DNA from: Shigella phage PSD9
Sequence record: MZ561532
Length of the DNA: 64,000 bases
Direction: 5' to 3' (one strand)
Part shown: positions 37,283 to 64,000 of the stretch, one piece after another
Position numbering within the stretch: the first letter of the stretch is position 1
Layout of the letters: the number at the start of each line of letters is the position of its first letter
The notes under the pieces: model-generated
Seen by the model: only the letters and a program-made list of their open reading frames with translations
What the model was told of the DNA's origin: nothing
Database searches by the model: none
Program-made: the position numbers and the translations under genes

Positions 37283-38125
37283 TTAATCCTTAAGAAGATT
37301 TAGGATATCGATATATTTTTGACGTTCAGCCTTGGCTTTAGCATTCAGACCAGAGAGTCGGAAAATCTCATCATCTTGTTGTTGAATTGTAACATTAAGA
37401 CAAGTAAGCAAATTGCTAAAATACTCGATTTGAGCTTGGTGCTTCTCATTGCTGCGCACTGGTACAGGTTCCGGTTTAGGAGCTTCTGAATGACTCTTAA
37501 CATCATTACCTGGCTTAACAAGTTTAATACGCCAGCCTGTACTGGTATTAACATTATCGAAGGTAAGAATACCACTACGTTCGAGTTCGGACAAAGCCAA
37601 TCGAAGATGGAATTTCCAGTTGTCATATTGACAACCACTAAAAGTTGAAGTAAGATACTCGTTTTCGTTACCTGGTTGGTTGACAATATTAAAGATAATC
37701 CAATCGCCTGAACCATTAGTCTTAAATGGCATTTGCTTATCTTGACCTTTTGCAAGGCGAGCACCCAGTGCTAGTAAACGACGTTGGTTAGTACGAAGGT
37801 CTTTAACAACTTCATCAAATGACATCGCTGGAATTAAACGACCATAGAGGTCATAGCCTTTGTTATAATTTCTAAGAATAATTCTGGCGTTAGCACGAGT
37901 CAACATACCGGCCCTGTGAAGAGATTTCATGACTCGGTCTTCTAACGTAAACAAACCTTTAGTCTTGTCAAATATTTTAGTGAATTCATCTACAGAAATA
38001 CAAACTTCAAACTTTTCCCACATCATGGCCAAAACCTTTTCAACCACTTCTTTATTCAGTGGAATACGACCAAATTTAATAACTTTTTTAACTTCAGAAC
38101 GAATTTGATTAATTGCCTGTGACAT
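37283..38125 (-). CDS. hypothetical protein (280 aa)
   Basis: minus-strand ORF; coiled-coil-like C-terminus. Confidence 0.45.
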   Translation of the reverse strand: MSQAINQIRSEVKKVIKFGRIPLNKEVVEKVLAMMWEKFEVCISVDEFTKIFDKTKGLFTLEDRVMKSLHRAGMLTRANARIILRNYNKGYDLYGRLIPAMSFDEVVKDLRTNQRRLLALGARLAKGQDKQMPFKTNGSGDWIIFNIVNQPGNENEYLTSTFSGCQYDNWKFHLRLALSELERSGILTFDNVNTSTGWRIKLVKPGNDVKSHSEAPKPEPVPVRSNEKHQAQIEYFSNLLTCLNVTIQQQDDEIFRLSGLNAKAKAERQKYIDILNLLKD

Positions 38126-38188
38126 AATAATTTCCTCAGTAAGTAATTAAGAACCTAGAACCATTATACCATCCTTGGTATAAAGCGT

Positions 38189-38713
38189 TTATGCGAGAAC
38201 CGTCTTTAAACGCTCTTCAAATTTATGAAGCAGAGCTTGGCGTTCAGCTCGTTGTGATTTGTACTGCTCGATACGACCTGAAGTGAGGGCGTACTGTTCG
38301 TTTACTGATTCCCGCATAAATTCAGGAATCTCTTTACAAGCTTTGATTTCGTCAAACTTATCAATAACTGCTTGTTGTTCAGCAATCAGATTATCGAAAT
38401 AAGCGATATCAGATTTAACGTTTGCCAGGTCAGATTCGGTAGGCATTAAACGTTTGTTACGTTCATCTTGATAAGCTTGATTGGTTTCACGACTCCAGTG
38501 AAGAGTACGTTTTTTGTTAGTGTTTTTATAGAGCTCTACAATACCAACTGAATCGATGATAACAATCCAGTTCCAACGGCTTTTGTAAATCTCTCCTCCA
38601 GATACAGTAATCTCATTACCACAAGCAACGTCGTTAAAGAACTTGCTTTGTTTTTCGGATTTGAAATTACCATTGTTATAATTGATGAGTGAAAAAATAT
38701 CTTTAGCGTTCAT
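38189..38713 (-). CDS. hypothetical protein (174 aa)
   Basis: minus-strand ORF following an early promoter cassette. Confidence 0.45.
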   Translation of the reverse strand: MNAKDIFSLINYNNGNFKSEKQSKFFNDVACGNEITVSGGEIYKSRWNWIVIIDSVGIVELYKNTNKKRTLHWSRETNQAYQDERNKRLMPTESDLANVKSDIAYFDNLIAEQQAVIDKFDEIKACKEIPEFMRESVNEQYALTSGRIEQYKSQRAERQALLHKFEERLKTVLA

Positions 38714-38724
38714 GTTAACCTCCA

Positions 38725-38770
38725 GTAGTTGATAGGTCTATAGTATCATTTCTACTGGAGATGTAAACAA
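38725..38770 (-). promoter_or_regulatory. early promoter cassette
   Basis: gtagttgataggtctatagtatca ... gatgtaaac. Confidence 0.6.
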
Positions 38771-39112
38771 CTAATAGAAACTTTTTTCACCGGCTTGACC
38801 ACTAAACCAGGCGGATTGGGTGTTCTCTTTCCGTTGGTGTTCAATACGAATGCGATATTCATTCCTGATGGCGCAGAGTTCATCTCGGAAGTAGCCTGCC
38901 AACTTTACCTGCTTGCGGTCTAGATTTATTAAGGCCTGGGTGTTAACGGCCAAGCGCAGTCTCCTGAAGTCTCCTCCACTACACGGATTTTTATAGAATT
39001 TCTCAGAAAACTTAGTACTACATTCATTAGTATAGTCTTCAACAGACTGTTTCATAGCTTTGGAAAAAGTCTGACCTGCGTTATAAAGATTGTAAATAAA
39101 TTGTTCAAACAT
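38771..39112 (-). CDS. hypothetical protein (113 aa)
   Basis: minus-strand ORF. Confidence 0.4.
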   Translation of the reverse strand: MFEQFIYNLYNAGQTFSKAMKQSVEDYTNECSTKFSEKFYKNPCSGGDFRRLRLAVNTQALINLDRKQVKLAGYFRDELCAIRNEYRIRIEHQRKENTQSAWFSGQAGEKSFY

Positions 39113-39121
39113 AATTCACCC

Positions 39122-40102
39122 TTATTTCAGAAGTGTAACTTCAGCGATTTCGCTCCAGTCATTTTTATCGGTGGCAATGAAGTCCGCCAGATAAAGAGCT
39201 GTACGTAATGATACGTTACGAAGACGAGATACATTAGCCTTCATCCATGCTAAAGCTTGGTAAGTCTCGGCATCAGTCAGACCACGGTTTTGCATCATAT
39301 CAGTGGACAGGATAACGTCTTCAACACGAACCATAATCTCTTCGTTAGAGTGAACTCCGAGGTCTAAGTAAACTGAACGAGATACTAAAGCCTGGAGGTG
39401 TGGAGCAAGTTTAGTTCCACGCTCTAATTCACGGTCAATATCAACGTTGGTGATGAACACGATGGTGCCTTCATACTCAAATTCTTTATCGATATTTTTA
39501 TCATCAAGATAAGAACTTGAAGTGCTCCAGCACACCTTACGTTTTTCACCAGTATCCAATGCTGCTTTTAACAGGTTCAGGATATCCATATCAGAGAATA
39601 CATCAACATCATCAATAAGAAGAACACTATTAGGGCCGCGGTTATTCCAAAGCTGCTCGTAAAGACCGATTCCACTAATCTTTCCGTTGATTGATTTATA
39701 TTCGATAGTTTCATTTTCGTGGGCATTCTGTAATGCTTTATCCAAAGAATATGTTTTACCAATACCTGCGGCACCAGAGATTATAAGGGAACGAATTTTA
39801 CCATCGATGATTCCGTTAGTCATCATGTTCATTACTTTAAAACGTTTGTTGATACGGTGTTTCATTTCTTCAGCGGATTCAGTAACCATTGCAGGAGCTG
39901 GTGCGCCTTCGGTTTCGATATCACATTTGAATACCCATACACCACGTTCAACACCATCAATCTGTACGAATACCTTGCCATCACCGAGGTGAGCTTCGGA
40001 TTCATGAATTTTGTTAGGGAACCAGGTTTTACCTGAACTCATGAAAGTACCAGAGATTTCATTACCGCGATAGATACCTTTGTTGATTTTGATAGTTAAC
40101 AT
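39122..40102 (-). CDS. P-loop ATPase (about 326 aa)
   Basis: Walker A ISGAAGIGKT, Walker B LLIDDVD; start adjusted to MLTIKINKG after GGAGAATA RBS. Confidence 0.55.
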   Translation of the reverse strand: MLTIKINKGIYRGNEISGTFMSSGKTWFPNKIHESEAHLGDGKVFVQIDGVERGVWVFKCDIETEGAPAPAMVTESAEEMKHRINKRFKVMNMMTNGIIDGKIRSLIISGAAGIGKTYSLDKALQNAHENETIEYKSINGKISGIGLYEQLWNNRGPNSVLLIDDVDVFSDMDILNLLKAALDTGEKRKVCWSTSSSYLDDKNIDKEFEYEGTIVFITNVDIDRELERGTKLAPHLQALVSRSVYLDLGVHSNEEIMVRVEDVILSTDMMQNRGLTDAETYQALAWMKANVSRLRNVSLRTALYLADFIATDKNDWSEIAEVTLLK

Positions 40103-40122
40103 TATATTCTCCATTTCACTCA

Positions 40123-40170
40123 GTAGATTTGATAGGTCTATAATAACATGTTTAAAGCAGATGTACACAC
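40123..40170 (-). promoter_or_regulatory. promoter cassette with MotA-box-like element (middle promoter candidate)
   Basis: minus strand reads GTGTACATCTGCTTTAAACATGTTATTATAGACC: TGCTTTA box upstream of a TATTAT -10. Confidence 0.45.
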
Positions 40171-40401
40171 TTATTTTGCAATAATTTCACAGAAGCCATC
40201 TTTATAGCGGGCCCATGTTTCACCATTTACTGTATAAAGAGCAGCTTTACGGCCATTAGGCATAACAACTTGTTTACCTTTGTTTTTAGTTACTGCTTCA
40301 ATAATTTCGTATTCTTCAGCACGATCAGCTTTAAAGGTATCTTCCAGAGCGATCAAGTTAGTAGTGTAAGAACCGTATTTGTAATTTTTGATAGCGTACA
40401 T
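40171..40401 (-). CDS. hypothetical protein (76 aa)
   Basis: ORF flanked by two near-identical promoter cassettes. Confidence 0.4.
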   Translation of the reverse strand: MYAIKNYKYGSYTTNLIALEDTFKADRAEEYEIIEAVTKNKGKQVVMPNGRKAALYTVNGETWARYKDGFCEIIAK

Positions 40402-40433
40402 TTTTATATCTCCGTTTGGTTTAAGTTTTCAGC

Positions 40434-40480
40434 TCTTTAGCTGATAGGTCTATAATAACATGTTTAAAGCAGATGTACAC
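40434..40480 (-). promoter_or_regulatory. promoter cassette with MotA-box-like element (duplicate of 40123-40170)
   Basis: gataggtctataataacatgtttaaagcagatgtacac repeated about 310 bp apart. Confidence 0.45.
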
Positions 40481-40500
40481 TACTTTTTTGCACTAAACCC

Positions 40501-40524
40501 ATAAAAGGCCCGAAGGCCTTTTAT
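40501..40524 (-). terminator. intrinsic terminator hairpin
   Basis: aaaggcc-cgaa-ggccttt palindrome with flanking T-run, at the 3' end of the NTase gene. Confidence 0.55.
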
Positions 40525-41534
40525 CATTTATAATACGAGTTATGGTTTTCTAGGTAAACCTGCTCAACGAACTTGTCCCAGAACTTCATGTCTACCTTCT
40601 CAGGCATACCGTTCTTGGCCGCCCAGATGGCATTGGTTTCGACTTCATCAACGATAGCTTCAAGTTCGGCCTGTACATCTTTAAAAGCATGAAGCCCTTG
40701 TTTGATTTCAAGGATAAACGGTGCTGTACGTAAAGGATATTGGAGGTCACCTGTTTGATAGATTTCCTTCAACTGGTATCCAGCACGATAAGCGTGGCTC
40801 AGAGCTTTCCAGTCAATACCTTCGTTAGCTTCAGCTTTACGAGCACGTTCACCATATTCCGCATCAAGCTTATTCAGGGATTGCTTGAGCTCTGTAATTG
40901 ATAACGTTGTTTGGTACTTACGTCCGAGAACAGTATAGAACGTTTGCGGACCTGTTTTCTCATGGTTATGGAATACCCATTCACAGAACTCATTTTCAGG
41001 GAGTCTGTGTTTGATATCTTCTACCTTAGTACGACGAAGTCTATCAGGGATTCCTTCTTGATAATCGACCCACTGTTCAGGAATCTGGTTAACAATAGCC
41101 AGTACACCACGCAGTGCAGCTAGTCGAGAACCCTTAACACCATATTTAGAAGCTTGCTTACGGACGTACCCTAAATAGGCTTTCATGTTAGTCGTATAGA
41201 ACCGAGAACGATTGTCTTGGATAAATTTCCATACACCAGGTAAATCAGATTTAACCACCAGTTCAGGTGGAGTGTGGAGCATATCCAGAGCAACGGTTTC
41301 GCCTTCAGCAGCCAGTTTAAAGAAATATTTCAGACTGTAAAGCTCGTGGTCAACATCATCTTTAGTGTTTTTGGAAGCAGTGTTATTCGTATTCAGGTTG
41401 GTATGGTTCATAGCCGTACCTAACAGAATATCACGCGGATGTGGAACAAAGATTTCTTTAAAATCAACATCAGATTCTGGAGTACTTGTTCCATAAAGGT
41501 GGCTACCGAAGTAGCCTTTCATAACTGTTCTCAT
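40524..41534 (-). CDS. Pol-beta-superfamily nucleotidyltransferase (336 aa)
   Basis: N-terminal GS ... SDVDF NTase signature (YFGSHLYGTSTPESDVDFKEIFV) followed by a helical region. Confidence 0.55.
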   Translation of the reverse strand: MRTVMKGYFGSHLYGTSTPESDVDFKEIFVPHPRDILLGTAMNHTNLNTNNTASKNTKDDVDHELYSLKYFFKLAAEGETVALDMLHTPPELVVKSDLPGVWKFIQDNRSRFYTTNMKAYLGYVRKQASKYGVKGSRLAALRGVLAIVNQIPEQWVDYQEGIPDRLRRTKVEDIKHRLPENEFCEWVFHNHEKTGPQTFYTVLGRKYQTTLSITELKQSLNKLDAEYGERARKAEANEGIDWKALSHAYRAGYQLKEIYQTGDLQYPLRTAPFILEIKQGLHAFKDVQAELEAIVDEVETNAIWAAKNGMPEKVDMKFWDKFVEQVYLENHNSYYK

Positions 41535-41989
41535 TCTTTGTCCTCGAAGTGGATTACCGGACAGACCTTAGATTTACGAGCTTTAATGTATTGAATAACG
41601 ATGGTTTCTTTAGTTTCTCGGCCTTCACGCTCAGCTTGAATACGTTGCCATTCCTTTTCTTCTCTACGGGCATCATACCATGCGTGTAAATTCATCGCAC
41701 CGAATGCCAAACCAATGGATAGCGCAATAATAAGAGCTATTGCAACCAATCCTAAAACAAACCCTAGACTCAACAGAACAGGGGTACTTAATACAAAGAA
41801 ATGCTCTAATACACCAACACCTGCAACAGTTAATCCAAAAAGCGTACTACCTGCAACAACAGCACAAGCAAAACAAGCCCAAACCATTTTCCAGAAGTAA
41901 GCACATAAAGAGTGCGGTCGAGAATGACTGTCATAAAAACGGTCATGAAGTTTAGCGTGCCAAGAGTTTGCATTGATAATCATAATCAT
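41531..41989 (-). CDS. hypothetical multi-TM membrane protein (152 aa)
   Basis: long hydrophobic helices; ATGA overlap with the NTase gene (translational coupling). Confidence 0.45.
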   Translation of the reverse strand: MIMIINANSWHAKLHDRFYDSHSRPHSLCAYFWKMVWACFACAVVAGSTLFGLTVAGVGVLEHFFVLSTPVLLSLGFVLGLVAIALIIALSIGLAFGAMNLHAWYDARREEKEWQRIQAEREGRETKETIVIQYIKARKSKVCPVIHFEDKE

Positions 41990-41999
41990 AATATTTTCC

Positions 42000-42560
42000 T
42001 TAAGAGTTCATAGTTGGGATAACAGAGTTCAGATAAGAGACTAAAACTTTTAGTTCGTCTTTAGTAAATACCACTTCACTTTCACCATCGTGTCTTTGGG
42101 TCAAGGATAACAAATCACGGCCCTGATGTTGATACACGGTTAATTCAGTATCATAATTCAGTTCTTCTTCATCACCTTCAAAGGTTTCACTAGAACGAAT
42201 CACGGCATCTTGGCCAGGGACTTTCCATTCAACTTCCGGCTTGCATTCTTCCTGGAACAGTTTGAAAATACAATCAAAGAATTTATCAGAATCGCTGATG
42301 CTCAGACATTCAATACCATTTTCCAGATTAAACCCGGTTTCATTTTTATAGATATAGGCAAACATATCATCATTGATATCGATAGGAGCACTAGCCCGAC
42401 CGTTAAGATAATCGTGTCTATCTAAAACCATTAAATCATAAAGCGGTTTAATATCAGCGATAGTCAGTACGATTTTATCGTCTTCTTGTGAAAGCTCAAT
42501 TGCGTTATTAACTACTTCAGCGGACAGTTCGCCAAACAATTCAGTTGTTTCAATAATCAT
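42000..42560 (-). CDS. hypothetical acidic protein (186 aa)
   Basis: minus-strand ORF. Confidence 0.45.
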   Translation of the reverse strand: MIIETTELFGELSAEVVNNAIELSQEDDKIVLTIADIKPLYDLMVLDRHDYLNGRASAPIDINDDMFAYIYKNETGFNLENGIECLSISDSDKFFDCIFKLFQEECKPEVEWKVPGQDAVIRSSETFEGDEEELNYDTELTVYQHQGRDLLSLTQRHDGESEVVFTKDELKVLVSYLNSVIPTMNS

Positions 42561-42570
42561 TTTCTATTCC

Positions 42571-42768
42571 TCAACGGTTATGTTTTAAAATACTATAAAG
42601 CTCTTCGACTTGGTCTGCATTCAGACAAATCATATCATTTTCTTGTTGGAGCGTGATTCCACCTTTTTCTTCCCAATCTTTAACAAAGACGTCATCGTCA
42701 GATTCTTCAACATCTGCTAAAAGGGCAATCACACCATCTTCAGAACAACCATTTGGATCGTATAACAT
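42571..42768 (-). CDS. hypothetical protein (65 aa)
   Basis: minus-strand ORF, acidic. Confidence 0.35.
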   Translation of the reverse strand: MLYDPNGCSEDGVIALLADVEESDDDVFVKDWEEKGGITLQQENDMICLNADQVEELYSILKHNR

Positions 42769-42889
42769 TTACAATTTCCTCACTAACCATGAAAAGAATA
42801 AACCGATTAAAATAGGGCCTATAATCATTGTTGACCAAGCCCAAGGTTCAAGATAGTAAATCATCTTCAGGCTCCTGTGCCATCAGCCA

Positions 42890-43072
42890 TTATGCTTTCA
42901 ACTCATTAAGATACTCAACCAAGGCCGCTTTAGAATTAGCCAAATCTCGTTTACACTGCTCTATTCCGGAATATGAATAGCCTTCGCAATGTTCTACTGC
43001 ACTATCATAAGAATCACGTTCAATAGCAGTAGCTAGTTTAAGGATTTGTTCAATCTGTTCAGTAGTTAACAT
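42890..43072 (-). CDS. hypothetical protein (60 aa)
   Basis: minus-strand ORF. Confidence 0.35.
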   Translation of the reverse strand: MLTTEQIEQILKLATAIERDSYDSAVEHCEGYSYSGIEQCKRDLANSKAALVEYLNELKA

Positions 43073-43076
43073 AATA

Positions 43077-43313
43077 TCACCAGTATTTGTTGATAGTAGA
43101 AATTAATTCTTGGGCTTGGGTAGTCTTCAGTTTACATCCACAACCCTTTAATGTGTCTTTAAGGAGCCACGGTTCCTTGAGCTCGTCCTTTTCTAGACGA
43201 ATTCTGTATCCTCGATAATCAGCGAAGATACTTCGGTCGTCGAATATCTTAATCTCAAGGATACGACCGTTGATTTCATATTCTAATGAAACCGTAGTAC
43301 TTGTAAGTTTCAT
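43077..43313 (-). CDS. hypothetical protein (78 aa)
   Basis: ORF following an early promoter cassette. Confidence 0.4.
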   Translation of the reverse strand: MKLTSTTVSLEYEINGRILEIKIFDDRSIFADYRGYRIRLEKDELKEPWLLKDTLKGCGCKLKTTQAQELISTINKYW

Positions 43314-43327
43314 ACTGTTCTCCTCAT

Positions 43328-43370
43328 TAGTTGATAGGTCTATAGTATCATGTTCCTAGAGGATGTAAAC
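43328..43370 (-). promoter_or_regulatory. early promoter cassette
   Basis: gttgataggtctatagtatca ... gatgtaaac. Confidence 0.6.
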
Positions 43371-43378
43371 ACCTAAAC

Positions 43379-43407
43379 GAAAAAAGGTCCCACCGAAGTG
43401 AGACCTT
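43379..43407 (-). terminator. intrinsic terminator hairpin
   Basis: ggtctcac-ttcg-gtgggacc stem with T-run on minus strand. Confidence 0.5.
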
Positions 43408-43410
43408 TGA

Positions 43411-43794
43411 TTATTCTAACGTCAGCAAATACTTAGTCTGGTAAAAGACGCCAGTGATATCGTCCAAAGTCGACTGGATGGCCTTAGGAAGTGTATCATA
43501 GATTTTATCAGATGCTTTAAGAAGCTCGTCAAGGAAATCTACAGGGTCCTTAGGCAAGTCTGAAGCAGACGGTAATGATGCTTTATATTCTTTGCCACTG
43601 AATCCAAGATATTGCTCACTAAATTGGTCCAGCGGTCCTTGAACTTCTACATAATAGAAGTCATACGCTTTGTGTCTTGCATAGCTTTTGGTTTCTAAAT
43701 GGGCTGACTTAAAATAGGCTAAAGAAACCAGTAGCCAACCAATATAAGAATCCACTTCAGACCCTCGACTGGGTACGAAATCATTGAACTTCAT
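43411..43794 (-). CDS. hypothetical protein (127 aa)
   Basis: minus-strand ORF. Confidence 0.4.
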   Translation of the reverse strand: MKFNDFVPSRGSEVDSYIGWLLVSLAYFKSAHLETKSYARHKAYDFYYVEVQGPLDQFSEQYLGFSGKEYKASLPSASDLPKDPVDFLDELLKASDKIYDTLPKAIQSTLDDITGVFYQTKYLLTLE

Positions 43795-44074
43795 CTTCCA
43801 CCTTCATTAGTTTTACATAACGCTCTCCGATGGCCCGACCTTCAATTGAGCACGCTTCTATAGTCCGACAACTTGAAATCTTCCAGGAAGCCGTAACATA
43901 GGCCCAATAGTCTTCGGAGGCCTTTACGCTGGGTCTACTCATTTGCGCATAAACAGGCATCGCACTACTAGCAAATGCATCCATCAATTTATCATTGGCA
44001 CCATTTGCTAGTGAAACTGTAGGGCTTAAACATCCCGCCATAAGGATACAAGCCGCTGTACGGAAAATATCCAT
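43781..44074 (-). CDS. putative secreted/lipoprotein (97 aa)
   Basis: N-terminal signal sequence with LMAGC lipobox-like site. Confidence 0.4.
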   Translation of the reverse strand: MDIFRTAACILMAGCLSPTVSLANGANDKLMDAFASSAMPVYAQMSRPSVKASEDYWAYVTASWKISSCRTIEACSIEGRAIGERYVKLMKVEDEVQ

Positions 44075-44166
44075 ACAAAAGTCCTTTGTTGTTTTATACT
44101 ATTTGCCTTTCGGCCTTAACCGATAGCGATTACCAAAAGCTAAAGCTCTACGGTTAGTATTATTAT

Positions 44167-44445
44167 TTATAGCTTTTTAAGCTTACGACAATAAGAATAG
44201 AACACGTCGTTAAAATTATATTCAACCCAATTCCTCTGTATAGGCGAGGTAATGGAAAGCATATAATGCGCTTTAATTAAATCCATCCCGTTTTTATTAG
44301 GACACTCTTTATTATTAGCATTATACGTCGCTGCTACAACCTCTATCTCTCTTTTGTAAGCCACATCATCCATGATAGGCGAAAGAACAATATAAGAAAT
44401 AGCCACAGCGAACGCTAGAATTAAAATCTTTGAATTTAGGTCCAT
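44167..44445 (-). CDS. signal-anchored periplasmic protein (RI-like by position)
   Basis: N-terminal hydrophobic anchor; sits beside tk where T4 has rI/rI.1; no sequence match verified. Confidence 0.3.
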   Translation of the reverse strand: MDLNSKILILAFAVAISYIVLSPIMDDVAYKREIEVVAATYNANNKECPNKNGMDLIKAHYMLSITSPIQRNWVEYNFNDVFYSYCRKLKKL

Positions 44446-44452
44446 AATACCC

Positions 44453-45025
44453 TCAACTCGTTATTTCTATCCAGTGCTTCCTGCACAATGACACGTAAGA
44501 ATCGTTGCCACCTATAGAAACTTGGGCGCCGTCCTTAATTGCGATACCATCCTGGACCCTAGCAGTCATAGTAGCTTTACGGCCACAATGGCACACACCT
44601 TTGTACTCAACGAGTTTATCTGCCGTAGCGAGTAATTCAGCAGAGCCAGGAAACAGTTTACCCTGAAAATCAGTTCTTAGCCCATAGCACATAACCGGAA
44701 CATTATAATTGTCTACTATCTTCGCCAGTTGTTTTATCTGTGCAGGTTCTAAGAACTGTGCTTCATCCACAAATACACAGTGGATATCTTTTTGAGATTC
44801 AGCCCAACGATAGAACTCGTATAGGTCCATATCCGGAGTCACGGCATTAGCCTCTTGACTAATCCCTATACGAGACGAAATGCTATGGCTTGATTCTCTA
44901 TTGTCTATCGCAGGCTTTAAAAGGAGTACGCCCATACCGCGTTCTTTGTAGTTATGAGCTGCCGTTAGCAATGAAGCGGTTTTCCCGGAATTCATCGCCG
45001 CATAGTGAAAATAAAGTTGAGCCAT
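44453..45025 (-). CDS. tk: thymidine kinase
   Basis: TK-family P-loop (AAMNSGKT), C-terminal Cys zinc site; 190 aa. Confidence 0.85.
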   Translation of the reverse strand: MAQLYFHYAAMNSGKTASLLTAAHNYKERGMGVLLLKPAIDNRESSHSISSRIGISQEANAVTPDMDLYEFYRWAESQKDIHCVFVDEAQFLEPAQIKQLAKIVDNYNVPVMCYGLRTDFQGKLFPGSAELLATADKLVEYKGVCHCGRKATMTARVQDGIAIKDGAQVSIGGNDSYVSLCRKHWIEITS

Positions 45026-45034
45026 ATTACCTTC

Positions 45035-45220
45035 TTAAAGACTATTTACATAAGCAATTAATTCATTTTCTTTCTCATCAAACCGACTGGCGAATTCTTC
45101 CTGGTGTTCGGCATCTATAGGGCCATATTCATCATAAAAAGAATTTGCTTCTGCATGCTCATCTAGAAGTTCATGGATAAGCTCAAACAATTTATCTTTC
45201 TGCTCTTTACTCAGACTCAT
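45035..45220 (-). CDS. hypothetical acidic protein (61 aa)
   Basis: minus-strand ORF. Confidence 0.35.
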   Translation of the reverse strand: MSLSKEQKDKLFELIHELLDEHAEANSFYDEYGPIDAEHQEEFASRFDEKENELIAYVNSL

Positions 45221-45444
45221 TTTGGTTCACCATATCGTACAAATTTAGGATGTTCGCAATAACCAGAATGAAAACCTTCGCCTTTATGGTTAATGCACCC
45301 TTTATTGGAACAGTACCACCAGTAATCAAATTCACATTCCATTTCATCGTTGCATAAAGCTGCTATTACTGGCCATTCGCATTTTTCACATTTAGCCGTT
45401 TTAAGAATTCGGGCTTGGCTCATAACCATTGCACCTTTAAGCAA
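45217..45444 (-). CDS. hypothetical Cys-rich protein (75 aa)
   Basis: CEKCEW ... CNDEMECEF ... CSNKGC ... C.H pattern suggests zinc binding. Confidence 0.4.
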   Translation of the reverse strand: MLKGAMVMSQARILKTAKCEKCEWPVIAALCNDEMECEFDYWWYCSNKGCINHKGEGFHSGYCEHPKFVRYGEPK

Positions 45445-45632
45445 TATTCTTCTACATGCTGTTTACGTTTATTTTTATCTATAAAAGTATATTCAACGTA
45501 TTCACCGATATACCGTTTATCGGTGTTGTGTTGACTTTTTATAGGGCATTTAGTTACTCGGGTTTCGGTCCAACGTCGAATAATTTCCGCTTTGTTTTTA
45601 GGGTCAAACGGATGCGGGTAATGGGCTTTCAT
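45420..45632 (-). CDS. hypothetical protein (70 aa)
   Basis: minus-strand ORF. Confidence 0.35.
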   Translation of the reverse strand: MKAHYPHPFDPKNKAEIIRRWTETRVTKCPIKSQHNTDKRYIGEYVEYTFIDKNKRKQHVEEYCLKVQWL

Positions 45633-62937: not shown

Positions 62938-63691
62938 TTTTATTTCCTAATAATTTATCAATAGTGGTGTATAGTTCAGAAAGAGTGCCGTTATTTTCAA
63001 CAACAACGTCACCAGGTAAAATTGGTAGACCCGCTTCAGTGATGTGCGAGTCTTGTACTTGACCGGTTTCAGCGCGAACTACATGAATAATCGTAGCACC
63101 CATCGCTCTGAGCGAATCAATTTCGTGTGTTTGACGAACATCAGGTACGACATAGTATTTCGCATCAGAGTATATTTTATCAAAATAGTCTAAAGCGAAC
63201 AACTTAACCCAATACATCTTATCAAATTGGTTAACAATAATATCAGTCCCAAGGGTCTGCATGAGACGACGTACTGACCAATTGTTATTTTTATTTATTA
63301 CTTCAAACAGTTGGTCTTTTGTTTCTTCAGACAGATACTGGACTGGGGTAAGACCATAATGATATGCGGTACGAACATCAATCCCTGGAATAGGAAGGAT
63401 ATTATTCAGTTTAACAATAGCATTTTCAAAGATATCAATAACGTCATATGGTTTTAAAGGAATGATTTCTTCACGGTCGTAACCGATACCTTCAAAACAG
63501 TTGAAATCCAGTTTAGGCATATAACTACGGTCGAATACAGGGTCATCAGAGATGTATTCATAGGCTTCAGCCAGATACTTTTTAATAGGACCTGCGAGCT
63601 GAAATTTTACCGAATCCATATTTTCGATTACATAGTTAGCAACGGTATCCTTACCGCTACGTTTGATTCCTACAATTGATATTAGTTTCAT
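62930..63691 (-). CDS. 1: deoxynucleoside monophosphate kinase gp1
   Basis: colinear with T4 gp1 (KRSGKDT ... QLAGPIK ... RRLMQ.LGTD.IVN.FD.MYWVKLFALDY ... HITEAGLPI). Confidence 0.9.
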
Positions 63692-64000
63692 TATTTTCTC
63701 ATAGATGGATGCATAGACATACGAGCCACACGTTGTTCGGCATACGAATCAATTTGTGGACGACCTGTAACTATTGTACCATCTATTTCTACAGCAAACG
63801 ATTTGAAGTTGAATGTTGCTGTAGCGATTATCGCAGGGTCAGAATCCTCTTTATAAGAGTACTGGATTTCCGAGAGGTCGGATGGCCAACCACCGTAATA
63901 ATGAATACTCATTACTATTTTCTGTTTGTTATTATCAAGGATATGGAGCGTAATTGCTTCAGGTAAGCCTTTAGGATGCCAGGCTTCTGAATCATGGGTT
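63691..64000 (-). CDS. partial CDS running off the window edge (gene 3 position)
   Basis: open minus-strand frame continuing past 64000; follows gene 1 as T4 gene 3 does; no sequence verification. Confidence 0.3.
   Translation of the reverse strand, partial: THDSEAWHPKGLPEAITLHILDNNKQKIVMSIHYYGGWPSDLSEIQYSYKEDSDPAIIATATFNFKSFAVEIDGTIVTGRPQIDSYAEQRVARMSMHPSMRK

Follow-up and report, generated by a model that had tools for sequence, protein, structure and literature searches.

The 64,000-nucleotide stretch of the Shigella phage PSD9 genome analysed here (sequence record MZ561532; hereafter the window) encodes on its minus strand an enzyme of 336 amino acids (aa), the start codon of which overlaps the stop codon of a 152-aa membrane protein. 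As judged by full-length identity and conserved position, the enzyme gene is the Dhakavirus ortholog of T4 nrdC.11 and belongs to the RlaP family. With moderate confidence, we propose that nrdC.11 encodes an active RlaP-family nucleotidyltransferase (NTase) that repairs RNA 3′-ends, and that the membrane protein is a separate protein that the enzyme does not require; both the RNA 3′-end substrate and the repair role in the phage are what we infer by analogy. This reframes the locus, which a sequence-only reading had likened to the pairs found in nucleotide-signalling abortive-infection systems, as something other than a new nucleotide-signalling pair.

The two minus-strand open reading frames (ORFs) were confirmed at the coordinates that the sequence-only reading had given, the enzyme running from 41534 to 40524 with the stop codon TGA and the membrane protein from 41989 to 41531, and their start/stop overlap was read directly from the sequence. 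The features of the two genes are as follows.

40524 to 41534, minus strand: nrdC.11 ortholog, 336-aa RlaP-family (PF10127) NTase (ORF, Pfam, PHROG, identity to T4, AlphaFold2)
41130 to 41534, minus strand: N-terminal NTase core, residues 1-135
41502 to 41507, 41463 to 41471, 41349 to 41351 and 41283 to 41285, minus strand: catalytic sites G10-S11, D22/D24, D62 and D84, respectively
40905 to 41087, minus strand: beta-rich insert peculiar to the NrdC.11-type subfamily, about residues 150-210 (DSSP on the model)
40527 to 40898, minus strand: C-terminal helical bundle, residues 213-336, with invariant R230, K243, H247 and R250
41531 to 41989, minus strand: small membrane protein, 152 aa (PHROG 944), equivalent to ORF95 'membrane protein' of Escherichia phage WG01 (ORF, PHROG)
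41693 to 41890, minus strand: hydrophobic block of the membrane protein, likely two transmembrane (TM) helices joined by a short loop around residues 62-68 (Kyte-Doolittle, AlphaFold2)
41531 to 41534, minus strand: ATGA stop/start overlap of the membrane ORF and nrdC.11 (sequence)
41541 to 41545, minus strand: GAGGA, putative Shine-Dalgarno sequence of nrdC.11, 6 nucleotides before the ATG and within the 3′-end of the membrane ORF (read from the sequence)

Family assignment and predicted structure of the enzyme

The enzyme is a genuine member of the Pol-beta superfamily with intact catalytic residues, as the sequence-only reading had proposed. Its N-terminus, MRTVMKGYFGSHLYGTSTPESDVDFKEIF, includes G10-S11 and D22-x-D24, and YFGSHLYGTSTPESDVDF supplies both motifs. 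The hallmarks of the superfamily were all found, namely the hG[GS] and [DE]h[DE]h motifs, a third carboxylate on a later strand and a minimal alpha/beta NTase fold. In two family alignments with 40 and 55 members, which span 32-96% identity to the query, residues G10, S11, D22, D24, N56, D62, D84, Y123, Y131, R230, K243, H247 and R250 are invariant. Since the catalytic and other residues are invariant across these alignments, the enzyme is very likely active. Moreover, Pfam PF10127 ('RlaP, RNA repair pathway DNA polymerase beta family') matches residues 8-135 with E=8e-11 and 42.5 bits, above its gathering threshold of 23 bits, and PHROG 388 ('nucleotidyltransferase') matches with E=1e-132, so that the motif lies far beyond chance. 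The PF10127 label is likewise precomputed on all 120+ homologs listed. At 50% clustering the family comprises 3214 representatives, 808 of them with E<=1e-30, nearly all 310-350 aa in length.

A confident AlphaFold2 model built from the 55-sequence alignment (pLDDT 86.8, pTM 0.72) starts with a minimal NTase domain at the N-terminus, continues with a beta-rich insert and ends in a bundle of helices. In the model, DSSP assigns the strands of the insert to residues 154-157, 165-168, 184-191, 195-202 and 205-208, and this element possibly contributes to substrate recognition.

The sequence-only reading had seen an architecture shared by CD-NTase, OAS and poly(A) polymerase-type enzymes, and here it has to be corrected. 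Foldseek weakly supports a minimal-NTase or kanamycin nucleotidyltransferase (KNTase)-like fold, and poly(A) polymerases and terminal uridylyltransferases appear as poor matches only. Structures of cGAS, CD-NTase and OAS were not among the top fold matches in Foldseek and structural comparison, and the predicted viral structures that match the enzyme are other phage and giant-virus NTases. Because the fold matches are of this kind and lack cGAS, CD-NTase and OAS structures, the predicted fold places the enzyme in the minimal-NTase/KNTase-like branch and not in the branch of CD-NTase, OAS and poly(A) polymerase. Likewise, PADLOC returned zero matches for the enzyme, and no cyclic-nucleotide-sensing effector neighbours it. 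An assignment to CD-NTase, CBASS or OAS was therefore ruled out on the grounds of the empty PADLOC result and of fold searches without such structures; the common ground with these enzymes is only the generic Pol-beta GS...DxD motif. Sequence searches of the PDB, with single sequences and with profiles, yielded no direct match for either protein.

The kanamycin and lincosamide nucleotidyltransferases and MNT-HEPN proteins showed no sequence-level match, and the phage enzyme does not contain the Rx4-6H motif of HEPN domains. The NCBIfam MntA model scored 13.1 bits against a cut-off of 60 bits (E=0.068), a match confined to the GS...D motif, and no separate HEPN gene adjoins the NTase as in the type VII toxin-antitoxin system MntA/HEPN-MNT. 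The genomic context of the family, described below, points towards RNA repair and away from antibiotic resistance or a toxin-antitoxin role.

Orthology with T4 NrdC.11

Over the 2.5 kb around both genes, identity amounts to 99.6% with Escherichia phage WG01 (Dhakavirus, Tevenvirinae) and to 92-94% with JS10 and JS98, and the enzyme itself matches its WG01 counterpart at 100%. The gene bears the name nrdC.11 in JS10, JS98 and Bp7, and the gene upstream is a 'membrane protein' in the RefSeq records of JS10 and JS98. T4 NrdC.11 (NP_049709; 'tk.-11') aligns with the PSD9 enzyme at 81% identity over 336/336 residues, gap-free and with a shared N-terminus, and the catalytic residues G10, S11, D22, D24, D62 and D84 are conserved between the two. 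In addition, the gene is flanked by nrdC.10 and the mobD.1 region, as in JS10, JS98, RB33 and T4, so that its location within the nrdC-tk hyperplastic region is conserved. The high identity over the full length and this synteny thus place the protein in the orthologous group of T4 NrdC.11. The subfamily, which the sequence-only reading could not assign from the letters alone, can accordingly be named as PF10127/RlaP. It had also considered that a clear match to a characterised T4 protein of the nrdC.x region with an unrelated function would overturn the NTase reading; the nrdC.x match is indeed clear, but the T4 protein is not a characterised one.

nrdC.11 is an already annotated accessory gene with a wide distribution, present in about 1,500 phage records, and an ordinary member of a known family. 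Many GenBank and UniRef records misname its orthologs 'thioredoxin', apparently from the gene name nrdC, and we also encountered the wrong names 'putative HNH homing endonuclease' and 'ArsR family regulator' (one record each).

Relation to canonical RlaP

RlaP was reportedly named by Burroughs and Aravind for its linkage to RNA ligases. Two Pseudomonas enzymes, from P. fluorescens and P. aeruginosa, add 1-2 nucleoside monophosphates (NMPs) to the 3′-OH of RNA and favour damaged RNA, and RlaP is required to regain aminoacylatable tRNA after over-damage (bioRxiv 10.64898/2025.12.29.696909, December 2025 preprint). According to the same preprint, RlaP labelled only RNA among E. coli macromolecules.

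When a profile of the NrdC.11 clade was aligned by hhalign with 12 canonical RlaP sequences, the two were matched over residues 2-94 only (94% probability, E=9e-8), and the GS motif, DxD, D62 and D84 were paired with invariant residues of canonical RlaP. The two types share PF10127 and the plan of an NTase domain followed by a C-terminal helical domain. They differ in that canonical RlaP measures about 265 aa, whereas NrdC.11 is about 70 residues longer and contains the beta-rich insert. The NrdC.11 type is thus a distinct RlaP subfamily, longer than the canonical one and unlike it in the C-terminal half, and in cellular genomes it is tied to RNA repair.

RNA-repair genes in the neighbourhood of cellular homologs

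A scan of 185,579 species genomes yielded 80 loci with full-length homologs (30-51% identity), 66 of which allowed an NTase ORF to be called. An RNA-repair gene, i.e. canonical RlaP, RtcB, RtcA, Hen1 or Ro60, lies within 8 kb in 20 of these 66 bacterial and archaeal loci, so that the cellular homologs display the genomic association with RNA repair expected of RlaP. At 13 of the 66 loci a canonical PF10127 RlaP of 255-290 aa is located directly downstream on the same strand; the other repair genes comprise RtcB (5 loci), Ro60/TROVE (4), RtcA (2) and Hen1 (2). All of them occur together in an uncultured Nitrosospira sp. (CAADGK010000054.1, L114:3555-12277), where the order is Ro60, RtcB, RtcA, NrdC.11-type, RlaP, Hen1 and an AAA_5 ATPase. 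Since bacterial homologs adjoin RNA-repair genes in 20 of 66 loci, a role in the repair of RNA 3′-ends, next to PseT, RnlA and RnlB of the phage, is supported.

The NrdC.11 type is often a second NTase directly upstream of canonical RlaP (the 13 loci above), which argues for a non-redundant role and suggests that in bacteria the two are non-redundant NTases acting together. The pattern of an NrdC.11-type protein (about 320-330 aa) with an RlaP paralog was also seen at the loci L090, L094, L125, L130, L141, L143, L152, L153, L156 and L161.

Among phages, a 141-kb contig carries an RNA ligase 3.5 kb upstream of its NrdC.11 homolog. WG01 encodes the polynucleotide kinase/phosphatase (Pnkp) PseT, RnlA and, at the Rnl2 position, a further RNA ligase. 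A search of the PSD9 window for canonical RlaP, RtcB, RtcA, Hen1 and Ro60 returned nrdC.11 itself as the sole match, and T4-like phages appear to carry the NrdC.11 type only.

Separability of nrdC.11 and the membrane gene

The sequence-only reading had pointed to NTase and membrane protein pairs of abortive-infection systems, and comparative genomics contradicts such a pairing here. In T4, mobD (L003:10430-11209) and not the membrane gene precedes nrdC.11: this homing endonuclease gene lies directly upstream and overlaps the nrdC.11 start, and the membrane gene is absent between mobD and mobD.1. In a VR26-like Dhakavirus, a gene for a MobD protein 79% identical to that of T4 sits exactly between the membrane gene and nrdC.11 (L008:3237-4001). 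Among 39 viral loci centred on the NTase, 13 have the membrane gene right next to nrdC.11, 20 have 1-5 unrelated genes between the two, and in 6 the membrane gene was undetected; conversely, 12 of 36 viral loci centred on the membrane gene lack an NTase within 7 kb. In the Aeromonas phages AS-zj, AS-sw, CC2 and 65.2 both genes are present about 70 kb apart (at 144.6 kb and 71.6 kb in AS-zj, at 142.4 kb and 211.7 kb in 65.2), and in Aeromonas phage AP1 they lie 16 kb apart on opposite strands.

No membrane homolog was detected in the bacterial loci of the enzyme, save for a 167-kb contig filed as 'bacterium' (L086; CAVJPU010000002.1, 167,038 bp), which by its size and gene content is probably the genome of a T4-like phage. 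The separable positions in nature and the lack of a membrane homolog in cellular loci lead to the conclusion that the two genes are not an obligate unit: by its gene order, the membrane gene is a frequent syntenic neighbour of nrdC.11 and not its obligate partner. We infer that the membrane protein is functionally independent of the enzyme. This argument on gene pairing rests on gene positions and not on counts of presence and absence. A comparison of record numbers (775 versus 1547), by which half of the NTase-bearing phages seemed to be without the membrane gene, was withdrawn, as divergent queries found the membrane family more widely.

Two side observations concern these loci. The junction directly upstream of nrdC.11 is an insertion site of the mobD homing endonuclease gene. 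Furthermore, several T4-like phage contigs are filed as bacterial genomes or metagenome-assembled genomes, including L086 and three contigs of 168-169 kb labelled 'Escherichia coli' (P0106, P0108 and P0119); such contigs can inflate the apparent 'bacterial' occurrence of phage genes.

Proposed role of NrdC.11 and alternative explanations

On the proposed reading, NrdC.11 would add one or a few NMPs to the 3′-OH of broken RNAs without a template, like bacterial RlaP. It would thereby restore nucleotides that host ribotoxins trim from the ends of tRNA or other RNAs, for instance RloC-type anticodon nucleases that excise the wobble base, and PseT together with RNA ligase 1 and RNA ligase 2, all of them encoded by WG01, could then rebuild functional RNA. 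NrdC.11 would act as a non-essential accessory in counter-defence, and the 152-aa protein would be a separate inner-membrane protein with two TM helices, from a family often seen in T4-like phages and in some jumbo phages. An accessory role fits with the viability on a laboratory host of a T4 deletion spanning nrdC.11-mobD.3. Wobble-nucleotide excision by RloC has been proposed to defeat the T4 Pnk/Rnl1 repair (PMC2610378), and a comparison of jumbo phages led to the prediction that RlaP restores the nucleotides taken by RloC prior to ligation (PMC7824862). The anti-defence function that the sequence-only reading had also entertained is plausible. If the proposed reading is true, NrdC.11 would supply a third activity so far missing from the classic T4 pathway of tRNA repair, next to Pnkp and Rnl1, and would answer the question raised in 2008 whether phages can undo wobble-nucleotide excision by RloC.

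Several observations weigh against RNA 3′-end repair or against the independence of the membrane protein. No repair gene was seen nearby in 46 of the 66 bacterial loci. The bacterial NrdC.11 type is often paired with a canonical RlaP, of which the window contains none, and the phage enzyme may work differently. The phage gene itself is not adjacent to RNA ligase, Pnkp or RtcB, the ligases and Pnkp being located elsewhere in the genome. The alignment with canonical RlaP is limited to the N-terminal ~94 residues; the C-terminal half and the beta insert differ, and substrate specificity may differ as well. In the preprint cited above, T4 NrdC.11 is listed as an RlaP member of 'unknown function' in cluster 5 of the sequence similarity network, whereas the assayed enzymes belong to cluster 1a (bioRxiv 10.64898/2025.12.29.696909). 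The viability of the nrdC.11-mobD.3 deletion does not indicate which accessory role the gene has. As for the membrane gene, it is located directly upstream of nrdC.11, with an overlap, in all Dhakavirus loci examined but one, and most T4-like genomes carry both its family and nrdC.11, so that a functional link in trans may exist.

The enzyme might act on RNA for purposes other than repair, by tailing or marking host or phage RNAs (oligo-adenylation or uridylation, leading to decay or stabilisation), or it might rebuild toxin-attacked 3′-CCA ends of tRNA independently of a ligase. This possibility, which we consider doubtful though worth keeping in mind, draws on the assayed RlaP enzymes, the substrate preference of which is only partial, on the missing linkage of phage nrdC.11 to ligase and kinase genes, and on the terminal uridylyl- and poly(A)-transferases among the weak Foldseek matches. 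It is countered by the occurrence of bacterial homologs within RtcB/RtcA/Hen1/Ro60 repair operons, and beyond the NTase core the enzyme bears no structural likeness to class II CCA-adding enzymes or poly(A) polymerases. The same repair operons, which are not toxin-antitoxin pairs, speak against a protein or a small molecule as the target, that is, against a nucleotidylation of the KNTase/LinB type (adenylylation of antibiotics) or the MntA type (AMPylation that disarms a HEPN toxin) that would neutralise a host defence effector. A minimal NTase joined to a helical bundle resembling HEPN or the KNTase C-terminal domain would suit such an activity, and the weak MntA match (E=0.068) points in this direction; however, this match is far under the cut-off (13 versus 60 bits) and covers the GS...D motif only, and the labelling of RNA alone among E. 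coli macromolecules, as given in the preprint, likewise argues for RNA as the substrate. We therefore regard a protein or small-molecule target as unlikely.

A further alternative is that the two genes constitute a module in which the product of the NTase, an oligonucleotide or a cyclic nucleotide, gates or regulates the membrane protein, as in Hailong (NTase HalB and channel HalA) or in CBASS with TM effectors, or in which the membrane protein tethers the enzyme to the inner membrane. The ATGA overlap, the order of membrane gene and NTase gene conserved in Dhakavirus and in part of Tequatrovirus, and the presence of both families in most T4-like genomes would be in line with this notion, and Hailong is itself an operon of a membrane protein and an NTase. 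Yet the genes are separable, as seen in T4, in the mobD insertion of Dhakavirus, at 20 of 39 loci and over ~70 kb in Aeromonas phages, and the bacterial homologs of the enzyme come without a membrane partner. The likeness to HalB amounts to 11% identity over 131 aligned residues, barely above that of other minimal NTases. The profile of the membrane protein, just 152 aa long and a predicted two-TM hairpin, found neither HalA nor any other solved chain, and the gene pair does not correspond to the two-gene Hailong operon, in which a HalB-type NTase and a HalA-type channel are co-conserved. Moreover, PADLOC was empty and ATGA overlaps are routine in the region. Hailong is a host defence system, whereas nrdC.11 is a phage early gene and the phage gene pair is not conserved as a unit. 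A two-gene module is thus very unlikely. We attach equally little weight to a phage Hailong-like device operating in trans, in which an oligonucleotide or an RNA-end mark made by the NTase would be sensed by cytoplasmic His/Cys motifs of the membrane protein and would control permeability, superinfection exclusion or the timing of lysis; the separations seen between the genes would then reflect action in trans. In a milder version of such speculation, the NrdC.11 type may be a functionally distinct second RlaP class that teams up with canonical RlaP in bacteria but acts on its own in phages, and that provides T4-like phages with the hitherto missing answer to the wobble-excising RloC.

Gene junction and transcription context

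The plus strand reads TCAT at 41531-41534 and the coding strand correspondingly ATGA, so that the ATG of nrdC.11 overlaps the TGA of the membrane ORF. The start codon of nrdC.11 is settled by the gap-free alignment with T4 NrdC.11, likewise 336 aa long, from residue 1; the WG01 RefSeq coding sequence of the enzyme begins 4 codons later, which is too late. The GAGGA motif upstream would serve as the Shine-Dalgarno sequence of nrdC.11.

The 4-nucleotide overlap between the membrane gene and nrdC.11 was found in all Dhakavirus loci examined but one and in some Tequatrovirus loci. In other T4-like phages, whichever gene adjoins nrdC.11 upstream usually overlaps its start, most often by 4 nucleotides. 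In WG01, the annotated 14.5 kb that surround the gene contain 31 other gene junctions, of which 6 are 4-nucleotide overlaps and 12 show an overlap of any length. Thus, of the translational coupling that the sequence-only reading had drawn from the ATGA, the overlap stands and its distinctiveness does not. The putative shared early unit described below and the ATGA junction would result in co-expression of the membrane gene and nrdC.11, and possibly in translational coupling.

Two elements would frame this unit.

40501 to 40524, minus strand: terminator-like site, a 10-bp hairpin with a UUCG tetraloop and a U-rich tail (RNA fold -16 kcal/mol, z=-3.2)
43342 to 43408, minus strand: upstream UUCG hairpin (43383-43408) with a promoter-like site after it (43342-43369) (consensus scans)

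The hairpin at 40501-40524 begins at the final base of the nrdC.11 stop codon and is a probable terminator or RNA-stabilising element that closes the transcription unit. In the consensus scan, the promoter-like sequence after the upstream hairpin reads TTTACA-16-(TG)TACTAT, and a second promoter-like site, TGTACA-16-(TG)TATTAT, is located at 40452-40479, past the downstream hairpin. The two UUCG hairpins with GC stems would appear to bound an early unit of six genes, namely orf78, orf60, orf65, mobD.1, the membrane ORF and nrdC.11. A reading of TGCTTTA downstream of nrdC.11 as a MotA box was rejected, its spacing to any -10 element being unsuitable, and an Rfam scan of 38000-45500 revealed no RNA family.

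The membrane protein

The membrane protein matches PHROG 944 with E=9e-57 and is 100% identical to a database protein of Shigella phage PSD9. The sequence-only reading had noted several hydrophobic helices; the hydrophobic nature is borne out, and Kyte-Doolittle analysis shows a single block of ~70 residues (about residues 33-99), which likely corresponds to two TM helices rather than several. The AlphaFold2 model is of low confidence (pLDDT 62, pTM 0.31) and contains long helices at residues 28-64 and 69-121. Most likely the protein forms a two-TM hairpin with both termini in the cytoplasm, the latter because the termini are highly charged.

Members of this family (26-77% identity) share an N-terminal NSWHxKL...P(S/T)LCxYFWK motif and a C-terminal KA(R/K)KxKxCP motif, with W10, H11, C29, Y31, K141 and C143 invariant. 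These conserved residues of the termini could constitute a metal site or an intramolecular contact bridging both termini. The family extends to Klebsiella T4-like phages, 230-kb phages of Aeromonas and jumbo phages of the Rak2-like type, among them Serratia phage BF, GAP32 and CBB. A search of solved structures with the profile of the membrane protein found no relative, and Pfam matches to Oleosin and TMEM125 were rejected, as they are below the cut-offs and reflect hydrophobic composition only.

Neighbouring genes

The downstream neighbour NrdC.10 (39122-40102, minus strand; PHROG 1250) is a P-loop ATPase with the motif GAAGIGKT and a possible C-terminal helix-turn-helix. Its Pfam matches of the AAA_14, AAA_22 and STAND types are all sub-threshold, and in most T4-like loci the gene is found close to nrdC.11. 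A small hydrophobic ORF (77-97 aa) lies directly downstream of nrdC.11 in many Tequatrovirus and Mosigvirus-like loci; in the PSD9 window it is absent and this slot is filled by a non-hydrophobic ORF of 76 aa (40171-40401). Finally, WG01 ORF148, the 57B product (at about 63287-63742 of the window), is annotated 'RNA ligase', a label that is probably misleading; T4 gp57B is what we take to be the anti-CBASS phosphodiesterase Acb1.

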